29,499 nucleotides of DNA from Candidatus Micrarchaeota archaeon (GTDB lineage: Archaea > Micrarchaeota > Micrarchaeia > CABMEP01), in contig CAZJHL010000001.1 in the NCBI GenBank assembly GCA_964545865.1, positions 1-29,499 on the forward strand, given 5' to 3'. The notes below the pieces were generated by a model that was not told the origin of the DNA, did no database searches, and saw only the letters and a list, made by a program, of their open reading frames with translations. Of the stretch, positions 6,377 to 28,207 are shown piece after piece (position 1 is the first letter of the stretch; each line of letters starts with the position of its first letter). The translations under genes were made by a program, and so were the position numbers.

Positions 6377-7192
6377 TCACTGTTCTTGTACTCCAGCTTC
6401 CTGCTGTCCGAGAAGTCCTTGCTCCTCTTCAATTACTGATGAACCGTTACCATTCCCTTCCTCTATGCTTGCAGATGATTTCTTAAAGAACTCTCTCAAC
6501 GCCTCTATCTGCTTTTCCCTTATTTCGGGAACCTTTGCGAATGCAAGATCAAGTGCGTGAATGAATTCATCTCTCGTCATCTTTCCATCCATCTGAAGAA
6601 GTATTACTTCGCCTGTCGTTGGGTTTATTGCCAACGGCATGTCTGCCTGGCCGAAGTTGTCCTCTTCCTTCATCATGTCAACAGCTATCTTATTGTCAAT
6701 CTTCCCTACAGACACCCCTATAGGTATGTCCTTCATAGGTATTCCTGCATTTGCAAGTGCGACCGCAGCTGCGGTAAGGCCTGCGACTCTTGTCGAGCCC
6801 TGGCCTTCAAGAATGTCCACATAAATGTCGATCGCTGTCTTTGGATAAACTTCCTTAATCACAACTGATTCGAACGCCTCTTTCATGACCTTTGATATCT
6901 CTCTTGACCTTCTGTTCGGGCCCGCTCTCCCGTGCTCCTCTGTTGAGAAAGGAGCCATCATGTACCTGCATCTAACTATCGAGCCGTAAAGGTTGGTTTC
7001 GTGCTTTGGAAAAACCTCTCTTGGCCCGTAAACTGCAGCAAGAACCTTGTTCTTCCCCCATGTGAGGTAAGCGCTGCCGTTCGCCCTGTTAAGCACTCCT
7101 GCCTCTATTGTTATTGGCCTCAAATCCTCTAAGCCTCGCCCATCTAATCTCTTGCCGTTTACGATCAACGGCACTTCTGAATTTCCTCCCAT
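6377..7192 (-). CDS. rrp41: Exosome catalytic subunit Rrp41
   Basis: RLDGR...LRPI, GSAYL, GPREVFP, RRSREISKV, GSTR and KEEDNFGQADMP, so the phosphate-binding and catalytic residues are retained. Confidence 0.96.
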   Translation of the reverse strand: MGGNSEVPLIVNGKRLDGRGLEDLRPITIEAGVLNRANGSAYLTWGKNKVLAAVYGPREVFPKHETNLYGSIVRCRYMMAPFSTEEHGRAGPNRRSREISKVMKEAFESVVIKEVYPKTAIDIYVDILEGQGSTRVAGLTAAAVALANAGIPMKDIPIGVSVGKIDNKIAVDMMKEEDNFGQADMPLAINPTTGEVILLQMDGKMTRDEFIHALDLAFAKVPEIREKQIEALREFFKKSSASIEEGNGNGSSVIEEEQGLLGQQEAGVQEQ

Positions 7193-7247
7193 TTAATTCA
7201 CCTCTAATAATTATTATATTTGATTTTTGAATCTATGTAATCCACTA

Positions 7248-7892
7248 TTAGAATCTGTATTGCTCCCTTGGAGTCTGGAATCTCTGAAGCATTTCTTGAG
7301 TAACCCCAAGATATTCCATTATCCTGTCTGTAAGCCCGCTTGTATGGGCTTCCCTCGCAATCTTTTCTATCGCGTCTATCGCCTTTGCAGAATTCTGGCC
7401 TTTAATCCAGATAAGGCCGTTCTTCCCTACGAGTATCTCGCATCCAGTCCCTGCCTTGAGTATGTTCAGCATGGACGAATGTTTTCCGATAACTCTTGAT
7501 ATCTTTGTTGGAGAAATGTCAATTATCTCTCCCCCTGTAAGCTTCATCGGCCTTGAAAGCCAGATGTCCTTCACTTCGCTTATCTCTGAAACCTCAGCCA
7601 ATATTATGTCGCCAACATTGAACGTGGTCCTAAGCATCTTTGAGGAAAGCAGTCCGTGGTATGGGGAAAATAGGTTTACACCGTATCCTATCACCTTCTC
7701 CTCTTCTATTATTCCTATCACGCTGTCTCTCAATGATGGAAGGTATGATGCTTTTATTGGCATGAATTTGGTTTGCTGCTCATCAAACATCCCAACTATT
7801 GCTGCGTATGTTTTTCCTTCCTTAATGTATGTATAAGGATTCCTTATTGGCTTGTCTAAAAGCAAATCGCCAGGTATTACTAATCTTCCCAT
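7248..7892 (-). CDS. rrp4: Exosome cap subunit Rrp4 (S1 + KH)
   Basis: VIPGDLL, YLPSLRDSVIGII, PTKISRVIGK (KH), GKNGLIWI and EAHTSGLTDRI. Confidence 0.95.
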   Translation of the reverse strand: MGRLVIPGDLLLDKPIRNPYTYIKEGKTYAAIVGMFDEQQTKFMPIKASYLPSLRDSVIGIIEEEKVIGYGVNLFSPYHGLLSSKMLRTTFNVGDIILAEVSEISEVKDIWLSRPMKLTGGEIIDISPTKISRVIGKHSSMLNILKAGTGCEILVGKNGLIWIKGQNSAKAIDAIEKIAREAHTSGLTDRIMEYLGVTQEMLQRFQTPREQYRF

Positions 7893-8064
7893 TTAATTCA
7901 CCTTTCTGTTGTTTCAGTTTTCTTAACAATATCATATCTCTTTTACAGCTATTCCATGTATAAAATAGTCAGTATGAAAAGTCCTCTCTTAATCAACGCC
8001 TAAGCAATAATAAGGGCATTAAAGCGCGAAAAGATGAGAATATAATATCTTATACACTCAATCA

Positions 8065-8072
8065 TATTTAAA
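8065..8072 (-). promoter_or_regulatory. Candidate BRE/TATA promoter for rrp4-rrp41-rrp42
   Basis: The minus strand reads AAAAGGAAAG-TTTTAAATA, a purine-rich BRE followed by TTTAAATA, within the 211-bp SBDS-rrp4 gap. Confidence 0.5.
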
Positions 8073-8103
8073 ACTTTCCTTTTCAAGCCCCTAACTTGTC
8101 AAC

Positions 8104-8805
8104 TTACTTTTTGTCTTTTGGCATGTTCTTTACTTGGGCCCTGCCCGCTGTAAGCTTGTTTATCTTGTCAAGGAATTCAGTCTGCATACCTGCAGGTATC
8201 TCTATGACTGCCACTAACGAGCCGTCAGCTTGCCATTCCTCTTTTTGCACGTTGTATGACTTTATACTTCCGTAAAGCCTCTGTGCAAGATCTGCAGGTA
8301 TTTTTATTGCGTATACTGCAGTGTCTATTTTCATAGGCAGAAGCGTTCTTAATGCTGAAATTACCTCATTAACCTGATTTTCTGCAGGCTTGAATGGATC
8401 TATATGTATCTTAACCTCTTCCATTGCCTTTTCAATTCTTTGAGGGGGGTGGGGGGCGTTTGTTCTTGGATCTATCGTCTCCCTTGCCAAGATGGCCACT
8501 ATCTTCTTTCTTTTTTCCTCCACCATCTGCCTTCTTTGCTCTGTTGTGATAGGAACGTCCCCATTAAGCACTATTCTTTTTCCTATCTCGAATACATCCT
8601 CTGTCCCGAATGCCTTCTTTACTTTTTCTCCTGAAGCCCTTTCTCCCTTCTTGGCATCCTTGAAAACCTCTTCAACCATCATCACATTGTTGAAGTCCTT
8701 CTTCTTCCCGAGCTTGAAATCAAGAGCCGTATTCGGATCCACATATATCTCAAATGTTTCTCCATTTATCTTGATGGAGGCAACGACTGCCCTCTCTATT
8801 CCCAT
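8104..8805 (-). CDS. Ribosome maturation factor SBDS/Sdo1
   Basis: [43 protein letters not shown] and IDPFKPAE motifs. Confidence 0.96.
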
Positions 8806-8853
8806 AAAACTACCTCTCCATTGCCGTTCCTATGTCTTACTTATCTGCGAAAA

Positions 8854-9567
8854 TTAAACCTTTGAAACATAGCTTGAAATCTTCTCAGGAGAAAGGAATT
8901 CGAACTTCTTTGTGGTCACTGGGACGATTCCTACATCAAATATCTCTGACTTTAGCTTCATATCTGGTATCTTTTTGAGAGCCTTGAAACCGAGAAGTAT
9001 GAGCTCATCAAGGTTCATCTTTTCGTCATATTCCTTCTCAAAGAATTCTGAAACCTCGTTCCTTCCTGCACCTATAACTGCTGCCTTCATTCCTGTGTAT
9101 GAGCCGCTTGGCTCTGTTTCGAACACTCTTGGCTCTGAATCAACTCCAGCGAAGATTAATGAAGCGCCGAAAGGTCTTGCCCCACCATACTGAGTATATG
9201 CCTGCATCATGTCAGTTATTTCTCTTGTGATGTATTCAACATCTGCGGGCTCATTGTAGGTATACCTGTATTTCTGTGCTTCTATTCTTGCTGTGTCAAT
9301 CAGCCTTCTTGCATCTGCTATCAATCCAGATGCAACTATTGCCATATGCTCGTCTATCATAAATATCTTCTTTAGCGATTCTGGAACGAATAATTTTGAT
9401 ATTTTTGTCTTGTGCGCTATGAAAACCACTCCATCCTTCCCGGCCAATGCCATGGATGTTGCTCCCCTGTTAACTGCCTCTTTTGCGTATTCTACCTGAA
9501 AAAGTCTTCCATCTGGGGAGAAAACTGTAATTGCTCTATCATATGCAGAAGGTGATGTCGGATACAT
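8854..9567 (-). CDS. psmA: Proteasome alpha subunit
   Basis: YDRAITVFSPDGRLFQVEYAKEAV alpha signature and RPFGASL. Start placed at the ATG at 9567 after AAGGAGTGG. Confidence 0.97.
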   Translation of the reverse strand: MYPTSPSAYDRAITVFSPDGRLFQVEYAKEAVNRGATSMALAGKDGVVFIAHKTKISKLFVPESLKKIFMIDEHMAIVASGLIADARRLIDTARIEAQKYRYTYNEPADVEYITREITDMMQAYTQYGGARPFGASLIFAGVDSEPRVFETEPSGSYTGMKAAVIGAGRNEVSEFFEKEYDEKMNLDELILLGFKALKKIPDMKLKSEIFDVGIVPVTTKKFEFLSPEKISSYVSKV

Positions 9568-9675
9568 AATACCACTCCTTGTCATTTGAATGACAAATAA
9601 AAATAACAATAAATATTATAGGTTTATATTTAAAAAACTATTGACGCTCTTAGCTTGAAATATATACTTTAAAAT

Positions 9676-9918
9676 CTATCTGGAAATATTTGTGCTGTTC
9701 TGCTTGTAGATGATGGATACAGAAGTCATCCCACTGTCTTGCTTTGATGTTGCTGTTGCATTGCTCTCTGAATTGCTCTTGAAGATGTTTCCTTCATTGA
9801 AAAGAACAAATGTAGTGTATAATAGAAGCGCGAAAACAAACAAAAGAAGAACAAAACCCAATAGCTGCCGGTTTGACTTTGTAAGAAAACTCTTTTCCTT
9901 TGCTTTTTTAACAGCCAT
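9676..9918 (-). CDS. Small bitopic membrane protein, function unknown
   Basis: Basic N-terminus, one hydrophobic segment of about 22 aa, and a Ser/Thr/Asn-rich tail with N-x-S/T sequons. Confidence 0.6.
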   Translation of the reverse strand: MAVKKAKEKSFLTKSNRQLLGFVLLLFVFALLLYTTFVLFNEGNIFKSNSESNATATSKQDSGMTSVSIIYKQNSTNISR

Positions 9919-9941
9919 ATTCTACACCAGTCTCTCATCCA

Positions 9942-10676
9942 TCATCTTACTATAGTGTATTTAGATAGATAAAGATGGGCCTGGAGTACTACTAAGAATG
10001 GAAGAACAACCGCTGAGTTCATCAGTATTATGAACCCCTGCCTCATCATTGGATCTAAGAACATCATGAATGACAATGATGAAAATACGTAGATCATGAT
10101 GAATGCGATCAATAGCCACATTATGAAATTCAATGGCCTTCTGATTACGTGGTTGAAGCTGCTTACTAATGCTGGAACTGGCTTCTTCTCCTCTAGAACC
10201 ACTGCCGGCGCCATGTAGAAAAGACCTAATGAAACAATGAAATCCAACACGAGAGCTGGGAGCTCGTTCATGTTAATTGAAATTAAATAGCTGAGGAATA
10301 AGAATTCAAGCACCTTTATTCCAACGAATATTGCAAATACAGTTAAGGTGTATCTACTTAAATTCCTCATTGCCTCTGCAGACACCTTCGTTCTTGTTCT
10401 TGAAGCCTTGACTACTAGGGTGACTGCAACTGCAGCTAAAGATATAAACAAGAGTGAAATGCCTGCTGAAAGTATGATTGTTATGAAATCTGTCATTGTC
10501 ATTTCTGGAATGCTTCCAGACCTAAGGAAATAACCTCCTAATGCTGTGAAAACTGGCGCAGGCGAGAATGGAGGAAGCAATAAAACTAATGAAAGCAAGA
10601 ATGGGATTGAGAAAAACAATATCATTCCTATATTCTTTGTATAAGTTTCTATCGCATTTTTCAATACATCTATCAT
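9942..10676 (-). CDS. Polytopic membrane protein (about 6 TM), function unknown
   Basis: 244 aa with repeated hydrophobic segments and composition like the core genes. Confidence 0.7.
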   Translation of the reverse strand: MIDVLKNAIETYTKNIGMILFFSIPFLLSLVLLLPPFSPAPVFTALGGYFLRSGSIPEMTMTDFITIILSAGISLLFISLAAVAVTLVVKASRTRTKVSAEAMRNLSRYTLTVFAIFVGIKVLEFLFLSYLISINMNELPALVLDFIVSLGLFYMAPAVVLEEKKPVPALVSSFNHVIRRPLNFIMWLLIAFIMIYVFSSLSFMMFLDPMMRQGFIILMNSAVVLPFLVVLQAHLYLSKYTIVR

Positions 10677-10773
10677 AGTTCCACCCTTATTTTTCTAGAA
10701 ATAAATGTCCATCAAATCTTTTAAACATTCCTTTATACACTCCTTTAGCTTCCTATAGCTTCCTATGCCTTTC

Positions 10774-12276
10774 TTAGACCTTTCTTGCGCAGCCTGGAAG
10801 ATTGAATATCACAAAATAAGCAGAATTGGTTTGGAGCTTGCTTCCTCTTGTTGCTGCATCGTCATAAGATCTGATCTCAACCTTGTAGACGCCAGGAACA
10901 TAGTTGAATGGAGGGGATGAAGATATTGTTTCATTCAAATTTATGAATACCCCATCTGAATTATTCCACCAAACCATATTTCTTCCGTTCTCACTACTTG
11001 AGCCTGTTGAGCCAGAGATATCTGTTATATTGAATTTTAATCTCCAGATCTTTAAAGTTGTATTAAAATAGTAAATTGATATGTTTGTTTTAACTTCGCT
11101 TATCAAATAATTTACAGGGTCTTCCCTCCATATTCTCGCTGTAACGTTCATTTTTGATGGAATAAATGTAGTACCTTCATTAAAGAATCCCGATGGACTT
11201 GAGTATATCCTTACACTGATCGGATTGATATCACCTATCAAAACGCTTCCCACATTGACACTAGAAACTGAAGCGGAACCGCATGTTCCGACTACTGGGA
11301 CTGTCGAATTAAAGTCAAAGCTTATTGTTGGCGAGACGATAGTTCCTGGTAAGGCATTTGGTGCAGTTACTGTAACTGCAAAATCAACGCTTTGACCGGC
11401 GTTAATTGTTGAAGGCGAGAATGAATTTACAATAAAACCATTTGAAATATAAACGTTTGAAACTGTTGCATTCATATCTCCGCTATTGTTTAGCTTGAAT
11501 CTGAAGGTTACACTGCCCCCTGGAGTTACAGTATAATCGGATTGAACTGGGGTGAGGGTGAGATTTGGACCATTATAAACTGCCAATTTAATTTCTTTCC
11601 TAATTGGACTAAAGGTAGTTGATGTATAAGTTGAATCTTTCATGGGGCCGTCTGTTTCCCAAGTCCTAACAAATATTGAACAGTTTTGAAGAGTTGAAAT
11701 AAAAGATAAACTTTTACTTAAAGGTGGGGTTAATGAATAGGCTATTGAATTATTGAGATCGAATGAATTTAATACTGTCCCATTATCGATTATTGAAAAA
11801 TTACCATAGCAAAACATGCCGTGCTTAAATGATGCATCTCCCTTAGGCTGCCCAGGATTATAATACATACCGGTGCTGTTAAAAATTGCAAATGGATTCG
11901 GTCCGGTCCCATACTGATAATATTGGGTGTTAAAATAATATGAAACGTTGTTCAAGTAATCTGTTTTGTTAACAAGCAAAATTGAGAAAGGTTGGACGTC
12001 ATTTCCAACAGATGGACGTGGACCACAACCAAAAGTAGGGCAGGGAACCATAATATTTTGTAAATTTGAATAATTCCCATTAAAATAGGTTAATGCATCC
12101 AATGTTAGACCTGAACAAACAGCGGTTCCATCACTCAATTCTGTACCTAAAGTTGATATGTTCAATCCTAAACCTACAGATACATCTGAATCTATTCTAC
12201 TTTGCTGTATTCCTATAAATGTAATTGAGAAAGAAAAACTAAACATAATTAAAAGCAATAAGAATGTTTTTTTCAT
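10774..12276 (-). CDS. Secreted/surface glycoprotein with an Ig-like domain
   Basis: Signal peptide MKKTFLLLLIMFSFSFS, about 19 N-x-S/T sequons counted by hand, and an Ig-like segment VTPGGSVTFRFKLNNSG...INAGQSVDFAVTVTAP. Confidence 0.7.
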   Translation of the reverse strand: MKKTFLLLLIMFSFSFSITFIGIQQSRIDSDVSVGLGLNISTLGTELSDGTAVCSGLTLDALTYFNGNYSNLQNIMVPCPTFGCGPRPSVGNDVQPFSILLVNKTDYLNNVSYYFNTQYYQYGTGPNPFAIFNSTGMYYNPGQPKGDASFKHGMFCYGNFSIIDNGTVLNSFDLNNSIAYSLTPPLSKSLSFISTLQNCSIFVRTWETDGPMKDSTYTSTTFSPIRKEIKLAVYNGPNLTLTPVQSDYTVTPGGSVTFRFKLNNSGDMNATVSNVYISNGFIVNSFSPSTINAGQSVDFAVTVTAPNALPGTIVSPTISFDFNSTVPVVGTCGSASVSSVNVGSVLIGDINPISVRIYSSPSGFFNEGTTFIPSKMNVTARIWREDPVNYLISEVKTNISIYYFNTTLKIWRLKFNITDISGSTGSSSENGRNMVWWNNSDGVFINLNETISSSPPFNYVPGVYKVEIRSYDDAATRGSKLQTNSAYFVIFNLPGCARKV

Positions 12277-27025: not shown

Positions 27026-27173
27026 GCCCGAGTAGCTCAGTGGTAGAGCGCCTGAGATACTTCTTAAAGAAAGAAGTTTCATCAATAAATTTCTTTGATG
27101 AAACTTTCTTTGTAAGGAAGTTTCGGCGAATCTCGTAAACAGGAGGTCAAGGGTTCAAATCCCTTCTCGGGCT
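27026..27173 (+). tRNA. tRNA-Thr(CGU), intron-containing
   Basis: Exon 1 is 27026-27054 and exon 2 is 27131-27173. The spliced cloverleaf has acceptor GCCCGAG/CTCGGGC, discriminator U, D arm GCTC/GAGC, anticodon stem CCTGT/ACAGG with loop CT-CGT-AA, and T arm AAGGG-TTCAAAT-CCCTT. CCA is not encoded. Confidence 0.95.
27055..27130 (+). other. 76-nt tRNA intron at non-canonical position 30/31 with a full bulge-helix-bulge motif
   Basis: Central helix CGCC/GGCG, bulges TG|A and AA|T, outer helix GAG/CTC. The intron folds into a long hairpin with a perfect 12-bp core AAGTTTCATCAA/TTGATGAAACTT. Confidence 0.92.
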
Positions 27174-27217: not shown

Positions 27218-27514
27218 ATGGAAAGAGTTTACAAAGTAGAAAAAAGCAAGAAGAAAGAATTGGATGCATTGATGGCGAAGGACCCGTATGCACCTATATC
27301 GTTCGGTAGAATCGCTCCTTTGCTCAAGGAGAAAGACGACCTTATATTCATTTATGTAAAGTCAGAAGAGGAGCCAGTGTTCAAATTCGTAGAAGAACAA
27401 CTCAAAACAATAAATGGAGAAAGAGCGAGTGAAAAAGAGGAATCTGAGATAATAGAGATGATACATAAAGAGGAGGAATCTGCAGCAGGGGGATTTGGCG
27501 CTATATTTGAGTAA
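27218..27514 (+). CDS. Hypothetical protein with an acidic/GFGAIF C-terminal tail
   Basis: 98-aa ORF with the RBS GAGGG and composition like the core genes. Confidence 0.8.
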   Translation: MERVYKVEKSKKKELDALMAKDPYAPISFGRIAPLLKEKDDLIFIYVKSEEEPVFKFVEEQLKTINGERASEKEESEIIEMIHKEEESAAGGFGAIFE

Positions 27515-27573
27515 TGCTGGTTGAATGGATAGAATAAACAGCTATTAGAATCCGAATATTAGAAATGTTAATG

Positions 27574-27637
27574 AGATGATGAATCTTATGAGTATTGAGG
27601 ACTTATGTCCAATGAAATAGGTCTTGAGTTCTGATCT
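27574..27637 (+). ncRNA. Box C/D guide sRNA with two guides, predicted to direct tRNA C34 2'-O-methylation
   Basis: Terminal stem AGA/TCT; box C ATGATGA at 27576-27582; 12-nt guide at 27583-27594; D' TTGA at 27595-27598; hairpin GGAC-TTAT-GTCC; degenerate C' ending in TGA at 27613-27615; guide to 27630; box D CTGA at 27631-27634. Fully intergenic. Confidence 0.88.
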
Positions 27638-27679
27638 GTCAAATAATACAAATCAACTAATAAACAAAGGCGGTATAGT

Positions 27680-28207
27680 ATGGTGACTCTTAGGGAGCTT
27701 CTAAGCGGAAGGATAAGAAAGGAACTTGAAATAAAAGAGAATCAACAAGTATCCTTTGCAGAAACAGTTACGCCAGCGTTTATTGGCGGATTACTGATCG
27801 GCATAGTTCTTGGAATACCTGGCCTGAATATATTGTTTCCGCTTGCGGCGATTGGAGGCTACTACGCTGTTGCTCTTGTAAGGGATTATTATGAGAAGTA
27901 CATAACAATACAAGATGCAATGAAAGTAGGTATAATAACTGGTTTCATAGGTGCGTTGATAGGAACTGCGATAATGGTAATCATAGCGATCCTTTACGGA
28001 GACGCGATCGCAATATTCTATAGAAGCATATTCGATTTTGAAACTGCTAACATAATGCTGATTCTTTCAGGTATAGACCCGTTCCTTACAATAACTACAT
28101 TGAAGCTAAGGTTCGTAGCGAACCTTGCGATTGGAATCGGTATGGGTGGAGTTGGCGGTGCGTATTTCATTAAAAAACACATGGAAGCGAAGGCAGATAA
28201 GAAATGA
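27680..28207 (+). CDS. Polytopic membrane protein with Gly-rich TM helices, function unknown
   Basis: 175 aa with about 4-5 hydrophobic GxxxG-rich segments. Confidence 0.75.
   Translation: MVTLRELLSGRIRKELEIKENQQVSFAETVTPAFIGGLLIGIVLGIPGLNILFPLAAIGGYYAVALVRDYYEKYITIQDAMKVGIITGFIGALIGTAIMVIIAILYGDAIAIFYRSIFDFETANIMLILSGIDPFLTITTLKLRFVANLAIGIGMGGVGGAYFIKKHMEAKADKK

Follow-up and report, generated by a model that had tools for sequence, protein, structure and literature searches.

The stretch of DNA analysed here (the window, 29.5 kb) is archaeal and encodes the exosome proteins Rrp41, Rrp42 and Rrp4, SBDS, proteasome alpha, the RNase P proteins Pop5 and Rpp30, ribosomal protein L15e, prefoldin and an LSm protein. 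Near its end, a gap separates a 98-aa gene (27218-27514) from a 175-aa membrane-protein gene (27680-28207) on the same strand, and this gap contains, at 27573-27636 (+), the full layout of an archaeal box C/D sRNA: box C, a 12-nt guide, box D', a hairpin, box C', a second 12-nt guide and box D. No ORF of at least 40 aa overlaps this region on either strand. Homologs of the 175-aa neighbour in NCBI MAGs carry the names Candidatus Micrarchaeia or Micrarchaeota archaeon, and the fetched loci that encode such homologs constitute the comparison set of this study. The gene order conserved among them is tRNA-Thr, 98-aa gene, sRNA gap, 175-aa gene, LSm, tRNA-Ala, HIT, YjbQ, tRNA-Val and Trm5. RNA-related genes are densely clustered around the sRNA, and this clustering is conserved (window 27000-29500; positions 7000-12000 of locus L001), with tRNA-Thr, LSm, tRNA-Ala, tRNA-Val and a Trm5/TYW2-type tRNA methyltransferase as its members; the RNase P subunits, L15e and the exosome operon are found further upstream in the window.

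From 27574 to 27637 the strand reads AGATGATGA-ATCTTATGAGTA-TTGA-GGACTTATGTCC-A-ATGAAAT-AGGTCTTGAGTT-CTGA-TCT, with G-A-G ahead of box C and T-C-T after box D (Table 1). The C-D' and C'-D spacers are both exactly 12 nt long in every ortholog, which is the archaeal optimum for the guide spacers of C/D RNAs. The terminal stem has two invariant base pairs only, to which some orthologs add a third, and is short but within the archaeal range. The initial annotation had described this stem as AGA against TCT, a register that is not conserved because G27575 (alignment column 15) is G, A or U among the orthologs; the stem compatible with a K-turn is the one given in Table 1, and the variability of G27575 fits what would be a bulged K-turn nucleotide. 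The same annotation had also appended AT to the D guide, but these two letters are part of box C' and are unlikely to pair. Its canonical intergenic layout holds, as does its placement of G27590 opposite the C of CAU and of G27626 opposite the C of CAA. As read from the alignment, U1 of box D' (UUGA) can pair with the invariant A6 of box C' (AUGANAK), a pair that could stand in for the usual C1-G6 pair; the GA dinucleotides of both boxes are invariant, and a covarying hairpin closes the C'/D' motif. Folding of single sequences by minimum free energy gave no significance (z = -1.7 to +0.6), which is expected because the guides must stay unpaired.

Table 1. Elements of the box C/D sRNA gene in the window.
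Element	Positions	Strand	Remarks
Terminal stem, 5' strand	27573-27574	+	G27573 and A27574 pair with C27636 and U27635; both pairs invariant in the 8 orthologs
Box C, ATGATGA (RUGAUGA consensus)	27576-27582	+	Invariant in all orthologs
D' guide, ATCTTATGAGTA, 12 nt	27583-27594	+	Complement of U30-A31-CUCAUA(32-37)-AGAU; G27590 opposite C34 of CAU
Box D', TTGA (CUGA variant)	27595-27598	+	Invariant
Hairpin GGAC-TTAT-GTCC closing the C'/D' motif, followed by A	27599-27610	+	Compensatory changes in 3 of 4 pairs
Box C', ATGAAAT (degenerate RUGAUGA)	27612-27618	+	A-T-G-A and position 6 (A) invariant
D guide, AGGTCTTGAGTT, 12 nt	27619-27630	+	Complement of (A/G)30-(A/G)31-CUCAAGA(32-38)-CCU; G27626 opposite C34 of CAA
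Box D, CTGA	27631-27634	+	Invariant
Terminal stem, 3' strand, T27635 and C27636	27635-27636	+	Invariant; pairs with A27574 and G27573

When the C/D'/C'/D arrangement is written as a strict regular expression, it matches the window once, at the site of the sRNA, versus a mean of 0.003 matches per shuffle in 300 dinucleotide-preserving shuffles, of which just one gave any match. No second intergenic C/D candidate was found by a relaxed scan of the window and of seven Micrarchaeota-related loci (L005, L008-L011, L222 and L039). A relaxed match at 10076-10144 (+) lies inside, and antisense to, an ORF at 9942-10676 (-), and was judged to be probably a chance match. At the gathering score, two tRNAs are all that Rfam reports in the window, and no C/D family is among its matches. 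When the E-value limit is relaxed, the 301-nt stretch 27450-27750 gives nine matches, every one of them to a C/D family. The sub-threshold scores for C/D families are 11-20 bits versus gathering scores of 37-70, and failure to reach the latter is expected because the model library is family-specific. The family RF01126 (sR41), whose gathering score is 54, reaches 13.1 bits in the window and 19.8 bits (E = 0.004) in the orthologous locus L011, in each case over only half of the model, whose C'-guide-D half lies on the C-guide-D' half of the sRNA. By score, therefore, the sRNA is not a member of Rfam sR41.

The sRNA is present in the same syntenic gap of every related Micrarchaeota contig that was fetched, in eight distinct sequences, from NCBI MAGs (GCA_038885315.1, GCA_038885895.1, GCA_026413625.1 and GCA_038874185.1) and from ENA, JGI and Logan contigs, across loci whose flanking proteins range from 99% down to 57% identity. 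Mean column identity is 0.90 within the RNA and falls to 0.71 on its 5' side and to 0.55 on its 3' side. The invariant parts of the alignment are box C, TATGAGT of the D' guide, TTGA-G, ATGA.A of box C', GGTCTTGAGTT of the D guide, and CTGA-TC. The hairpin between D' and C' varies in length, from 2 bp with a GAAA loop to approximately 15 bp. For the whole tested structure of six pairs, 95.7% of the cells pair, versus 25-46% when the partners are slid, and 1 of 500 shuffles reaches the value of 95.7%. Box-like words might arise by chance in AT-rich intergenic DNA, given that the boxes are short and that the window is 64% A+T. Nonetheless, this explanation has a negligible probability and is effectively refuted by the shuffles, by the conservation of eight distinct orthologous sequences and by their covariation.

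Across the loci the sRNA begins 10-60 nt past the upstream stop codon and ends 20-45 nt ahead of the downstream start codon, and inspection by eye across these loci found no TATA-like or other promoter element at a fixed upstream distance. In archaea, processing out of mRNA flanks or longer transcripts is a common origin of C/D sRNAs, and the RNA described here may likewise be processed from a longer transcript. The same location, on the strand of both neighbours and with no promoter conserved at a fixed distance, would also suit a regulatory K-turn, such as a translational operator that binds L7Ae, rather than a methylation guide; it would belong to the 3' UTR of the 98-aa gene or, on the other side, to the 5' UTR of the 175-aa gene. 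We consider this very improbable, given that a regulatory K-turn needs neither two pairs of boxes nor two spacers of exactly 12 nt, and that here 11 nt of one spacer and 7 nt of the other never vary, in contrast to the drifting flanks. The anatomy, the statistics, the synteny and the pattern of conservation strongly support a box C/D guide RNA, and we regard it as established, at the level of sequence comparison, that the locus is a genuine and conserved box C/D sRNA gene.

In the D' guide, the seven letters TATGAGT (27587-27593) are invariant and lie opposite tRNA positions 37-31 (ACUCAUA), whereas 27583-27586 and 27594 vary by lineage, the former being ATCT, ATTT, ACTT or GCTC. The four variants of the guide, ATCTTATGAGTA, ATTTTATGAGTA, ACTTTATGAGTG and GCTCTATGAGTG, have as perfect targets UACUCAUA-AGAU, UACUCAUA-AAAU, CACUCAUA-AAGU and CACUCAUA-GAGC, respectively; they are carried, in this order, by the clade of the window, by that of L227, by that of L010 and by that of L011 and L226. 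The limit of conservation in the D' guide thus coincides with tRNA position 37, the canonical intron site, and the variable remainder of the guide behaves like intron sequence. The same pattern characterizes the 17 euryarchaeal sRNAs that carry the guide (G/A)CC(C/G)UAUGAG(U/C)N, including Pyrococcus sR49 and Haloferax sR-tMet (Grosjean et al. 2008, PMC2584109, section 13 and Additional file 5). The partner of these guides is 5'-CACU-Cm-AUA-ggg, of which ggg belongs to the intron; because the guides pair into the intron, methylation of C34 must precede splicing. The D' guide of the loci L011 and L226, GCUCUAUGAGUG, shares all but one of its 12 letters with GCCCUAUGAGUG, the sequence of the known Met guides. 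In the ARMAN lineage of Micrarchaeota, tRNA-Ile(CAU) is absent (PMC3239211), which leaves only Met tRNAs as CAU tRNAs, and the letters of the guide that vary are not accommodated by the GGG/CCC stem of the initiator. The intron-containing elongator pre-tRNA-Met is therefore the best candidate for the target of the D' guide.

One feature of the guide is at odds with this assignment, namely that the bases opposite position 30 and opposite the third nucleotide after 37 covary (U/A, U/A, C/G, C/G). Such covariation would suit a 30-40 stem pair in an intronless tRNA, and it raises the alternative that the D' guide acts on a mature CAU tRNA, elongator or initiator tRNA-Met, rather than on an intron-containing precursor; Cm34 has indeed been observed in the initiator tRNA-Met of M. 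maripaludis and P. furiosus (PMC7668247). However, position 39 would then be mismatched, given that A31 requires U39 and the guides have C or U opposite 39, and L011 would in addition need G38. The invariant GGG/CCC stem of the initiator would allow pairing over approximately eight positions only and leaves the lineage-specific variation unexplained, and 17 of the 17 known Met guides pair into the intron (PMC2584109). We therefore hold a mature tRNA to be an improbable target and retain the elongator pre-tRNA-Met. The initial annotation had proposed a CAU tRNA or its precursor as the target: this is borne out in so far as the features point to tRNA-Met, with the conservation of the D' guide ending at 37 and L011 matching half of Rfam sR41, while the corresponding gene was not retrieved from a genome bearing the sRNA.

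In the D guide, positions 27620-27630 are invariant in all orthologs, opposite positions 30-40 of a tRNA-Leu(CAA) arm GG-CUCAAGA-CC, and only 27619, the twelfth nucleotide of the guide, varies (A, G or C). Such arms were looked for by scanning the GTDB representative genomes for AGGCTCAAGACCT followed by a gap and a T-loop, which gave 83 loci, at least 54 of them genuine archaeal tRNA-Leu(CAA) genes from many phyla with the arm AGG-CUCAAGA-CCU. Micrarchaeota are represented in that scan by one MAG only (L039), with the arm GUAGG-CUCAAGA-CCUAC, to which the D guide would pair through ten Watson-Crick and two G-U pairs, the wobbles being needed at tRNA positions 30 and 31 (G30-U and G31-U). None of the 83 loci lies on the contigs JAWAAD, JAVZZA, JAOAKO or JAVZCX of the sRNA-bearing MAGs, which are possibly absent from the collection. 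The pattern of the scan possibly missed further Leu genes because its fixed A29-G30, which is probably too strict, breaks on introns between positions 30 and 31. Two genes of this kind were seen outside the genomes that bear the sRNA. In the MAG CAZKOV010000012.1 (L033, 2480-2615, minus strand), a tRNA-Leu(CAA) gene has an intron of approximately 51 nt at 30/31 and the arm AUAGG-CUCAAGA-CCUAU. In the Aenigmatarchaeota MAG JAWBZR010000020.1 (L026, 2319-2437), a tRNA-Leu(CAA) gene has an intron of approximately 33 nt at the same site; this intron holds UCUUGAGCG-CUGA, with C34 opposite the fifth nucleotide upstream of CUGA, and a downstream AUGAUG. Possibly the intron thereby carries a C/D-like guide, in permuted order, for Cm34 of its own tRNA; alternatively, these letters may just reflect the pairing of anticodon and intron in the splicing motif.

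The arm AUAGG/CCUAU that the initial annotation had predicted for tRNA-Leu(CAA) is found in L033, an unclassified MAG ('uncultured archaeon'), and the Micrarchaeota MAG L039 has GUAGG/CCUAC; no such arm came from a genome bearing the sRNA. For Pyrococcus, it has been predicted that C34 of tRNA-Leu(CAA) is methylated with the help of a C/D sRNA other than the one for tRNA-Met (PMC7668247, PMC7994747), and the assignment of the D guide to this tRNA is plausible from its complementarity. The survey of P. furiosus tRNAs records Cm34 in 'some tRNAs' and does not specifically report it for tRNA-Leu(CAA) (PMC7668247).

Neither a tRNA-Met(CAU) nor a tRNA-Leu(CAA) gene was recovered from any sRNA-bearing genome by the scans or in the syntenic loci. 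Across all the Micrarchaeota loci, the motifs ACTCATA and CTCAAGACC match only the antisense strand of the sRNA gene itself and the tRNA of L039. Walking outwards with the window proteins and with metallophosphoesterase homologs, which added approximately 25 kb in three genomes, gave only tRNA-Ala and tRNA-Val and no target motif, and the homologs of the large protein that adjoins the tRNA-Leu gene of L039 (two matches) provided no route to a target tRNA by synteny. A scan of metagenome contigs for a Met target of the L011 type (CACTCATAGAGC and a T-loop) gave no tRNA-Met among the matches listed, which are mostly an unrelated repeat, and scans of viral contigs for the Met target of the window type and for the D guide with box D gave phage coding matches only. 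The repeat (...GGCGTATGATCACTCATAGAGCTAGCGAGTCTGTATACTGTACCACTAAGCGCCGTTAATGGTTCGAGTCG...) is present in high copy in dozens of contigs from a few JGI metagenomes (L102, L106, L107 and others), and is unrelated to the sRNA. Genes for fibrillarin, Nop5 and L7Ae were not found within approximately 60 kb of syntenic DNA.

Given that neither tRNA target was found in the same genome, that the majority of archaeal C/D guides are directed to rRNA, and that in sRNAs that target tRNA one guide is usually without a target (PMC7994747, PMC6009581), it has to be considered whether this is a genuine C/D sRNA in which one or both guides act on 16S or 23S rRNA or on another small RNA, or are orphan, the likeness to anticodon loops being partly a coincidence. 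The register of the guides stands against this. The form of an anticodon loop, Y32-U33-NNN-R37-A38, appears in the methylation register in approximately 2.6-2.9% of the 12-mers of the window, and therefore two such guides in one RNA would be expected by chance with a probability of approximately 7e-4, which upholds the contention of the initial annotation that a coincidence of both guides on position 34 is unlikely. Furthermore, the Met guide is nearly equal to the known Met guides, and both guides are under strong purifying selection, so that neither looks orphan. Targets other than the two tRNAs are for these reasons unlikely, although this is a reading that deserves some weight, and we regard tRNA targets for both guides as probable from the complementarity and its conservation.

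The RNA most closely resembles Pyrococcus sR49 (the 'sR41' of Rfam RF01126) and Haloferax sR-tMet, which are exonic box C/D sRNAs for Cm34 of elongator pre-tRNA-Met, with the same chemistry and the same logic of the target. They share a guide of the form ...YAUGAGY..., complementary to (C/U)ACU-C34-AUA, that runs into the first nucleotides of the intron; the L011 guide differs from the Met guide of haloarchaea and Methanosarcina by one letter in 12, and the Met-guide sRNAs of Halobacteria also have a long spacer between D' and C'. The differences are in the architecture: in the 17 of 17 published cases the Met guide occupies the C'-D spacer, with no conservation of the D' spacer, whereas in all the orthologs described here it occupies the C-D' spacer and a second conserved guide is found in the D spacer. 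Moreover, box D' is here UUGA, box C' is AUGANAK, and the phylum is Micrarchaeota. In Pyrococcus, C/D sRNAs are predicted for C34 of tRNA-Leu(CAA) and for U34 of tRNA-Leu(UAA), which, compared by description, is the same target nucleotide and the same mechanism; there, the Leu and Met guides are on separate sRNAs, whereas here both are on one RNA. These precedents had been named correctly in the initial annotation, both for sR-tMet and sR49 in the methylation of pre-tRNA-Met and for the separate Pyrococcus sRNAs for C34 of tRNA-Leu(CAA).

Among other systems, the C/D guide in the intron of pre-tRNA-Trp (Cm34 and Um39) likewise has two guides for the anticodon arm and acts on a precursor (PMC2584109), but it is encoded by an intron and its two guides share a single target tRNA, whereas the sRNA described here is a stand-alone gene with two different tRNAs as its predicted targets. 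Human SNORD97 and SCARNA97 direct Cm34 of elongator tRNA-Met(CAT), as is proposed here for Micrarchaeota; that system is eukaryotic, uses two cooperating RNAs for one site and involves no pairing with an intron. Wobble 2'-O-methyltransferases that consist of protein only, namely bacterial TrmL (tRNA-Leu CAA and UAA) and eukaryotic Trm7, act at the same positions and with the same presumed role in decoding, with no guide RNA. Reviews of tRNA-directed sRNAs state that one guide is normally functional and the other without a target (PMC7994747; 80% of the cases in PMC6009581), and an RNA in which both guides are strongly conserved and face the wobble bases of two tRNAs is therefore unusual. Nonetheless, guide replacement and circular permutation are known from the evolution of such RNAs, and the pairing of guides for two tRNAs stays within that range. 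The mechanism is the one shared by all archaeal C/D sRNPs, and no new mechanism is revealed.

Taken as a whole, the evidence favors, with a probability that we place at roughly 0.65, a Micrarchaeota C/D guide RNA that would direct Cm34 of pre-tRNA-Met through its D' guide and of tRNA-Leu(CAA) through its D guide. A transcript of approximately 27573-27636 (+) would fold into two kink-turn motifs, the terminal C/D motif with its 2-bp stem and the internal C'/D' motif closed by the hairpin, which L7Ae, Nop5 and fibrillarin would be expected to bind. Each 12-nt spacer would then pair with the anticodon loop of a tRNA, and fibrillarin would 2'-O-methylate the nucleotide opposite the fifth position of the guide. 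For the D' guide, the partner would be the elongator pre-tRNA-Met with its intron, bound across the 37/38 exon-intron junction, in which case methylation of C34 would precede splicing. For the D guide, it would be the anticodon arm of tRNA-Leu(CAA), where C34 would likewise be methylated. The layout of the RNA, its conservation and the fit of its guides to the two anticodon loops are seen directly in the letters; that the RNA is expressed, assembles into an RNP, acts on these two tRNAs in this genome and brings about their modification is what we infer from them.

The analysis adds a well-supported non-coding gene to the genomes of Micrarchaeota, and within the collection of papers that was searched in full text there is no paper that joins Micrarchaeota with fibrillarin, nor any description of C/D sRNAs for Micrarchaeota or for DPANN lineages except Nanoarchaeum. 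The gene would imply that the fibrillarin/Nop5/L7Ae system persists in a symbiont lineage with a reduced genome, and it suggests that the Met-guide module known from Euryarchaeota can also be placed in the opposite half of such an RNA, next to another guide for a tRNA. Two predictions follow: an elongator tRNA-Met with a 37/38 intron whose first four bases vary by lineage exactly like the guide, and a tRNA-Leu(CAA) arm in which position 41 tracks nucleotide 27619 of the guide.

The sRNA is the sole intergenic C/D candidate in the window and in the syntenic loci scanned. A broader idea, which we put forward tentatively and regard as more doubtful than probable, is that in reduced DPANN genomes one sRNP methylates the wobble C of both pre-tRNA-Met, before splicing, and tRNA-Leu(CAA), and that this RNA may be among the very few C/D RNAs that are kept. 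If this is true, the C/D machinery would be kept chiefly for the fidelity of decoding (AUG versus AUA, UUG versus UUA) rather than for the stabilization of rRNA, the RNA would be the first C/D RNA described in Micrarchaeota, and it would be an exception to the rule of one functional guide in tRNA-directed sRNAs. To call the use of one RNA for both targets economical, as the initial annotation did, is speculation.

Further observations were made on the tRNA genes and on the neighborhood of the sRNA. The tRNA-Thr(CGU) gene of the window (27026-27173, plus strand) has an intron of approximately 76 nt (approximately 27055-27130) between positions 30 and 31, which interrupts the 5' strand of the anticodon stem and folds as a long hairpin. 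This gene is missed by ARAGORN or miscalled as tRNA-Phe, while Rfam detects a tRNA with an 85-nt insert. In the orthologous tRNA-Thr genes, the intron is 26-28 nt long in L005, L009 and L010, and there is none in L008, L011 and L227. Introns at 30/31 seem to be recurrent in the tRNA genes of DPANN archaea. In L226, a nucleotidyltransferase/HEPN pair (8550-9505) is inserted upstream of the 100-aa gene, and in two ENA contigs a Cas6 gene adjoins the PPDK gene (L224, 1851-2591; L225, 1917-2657).
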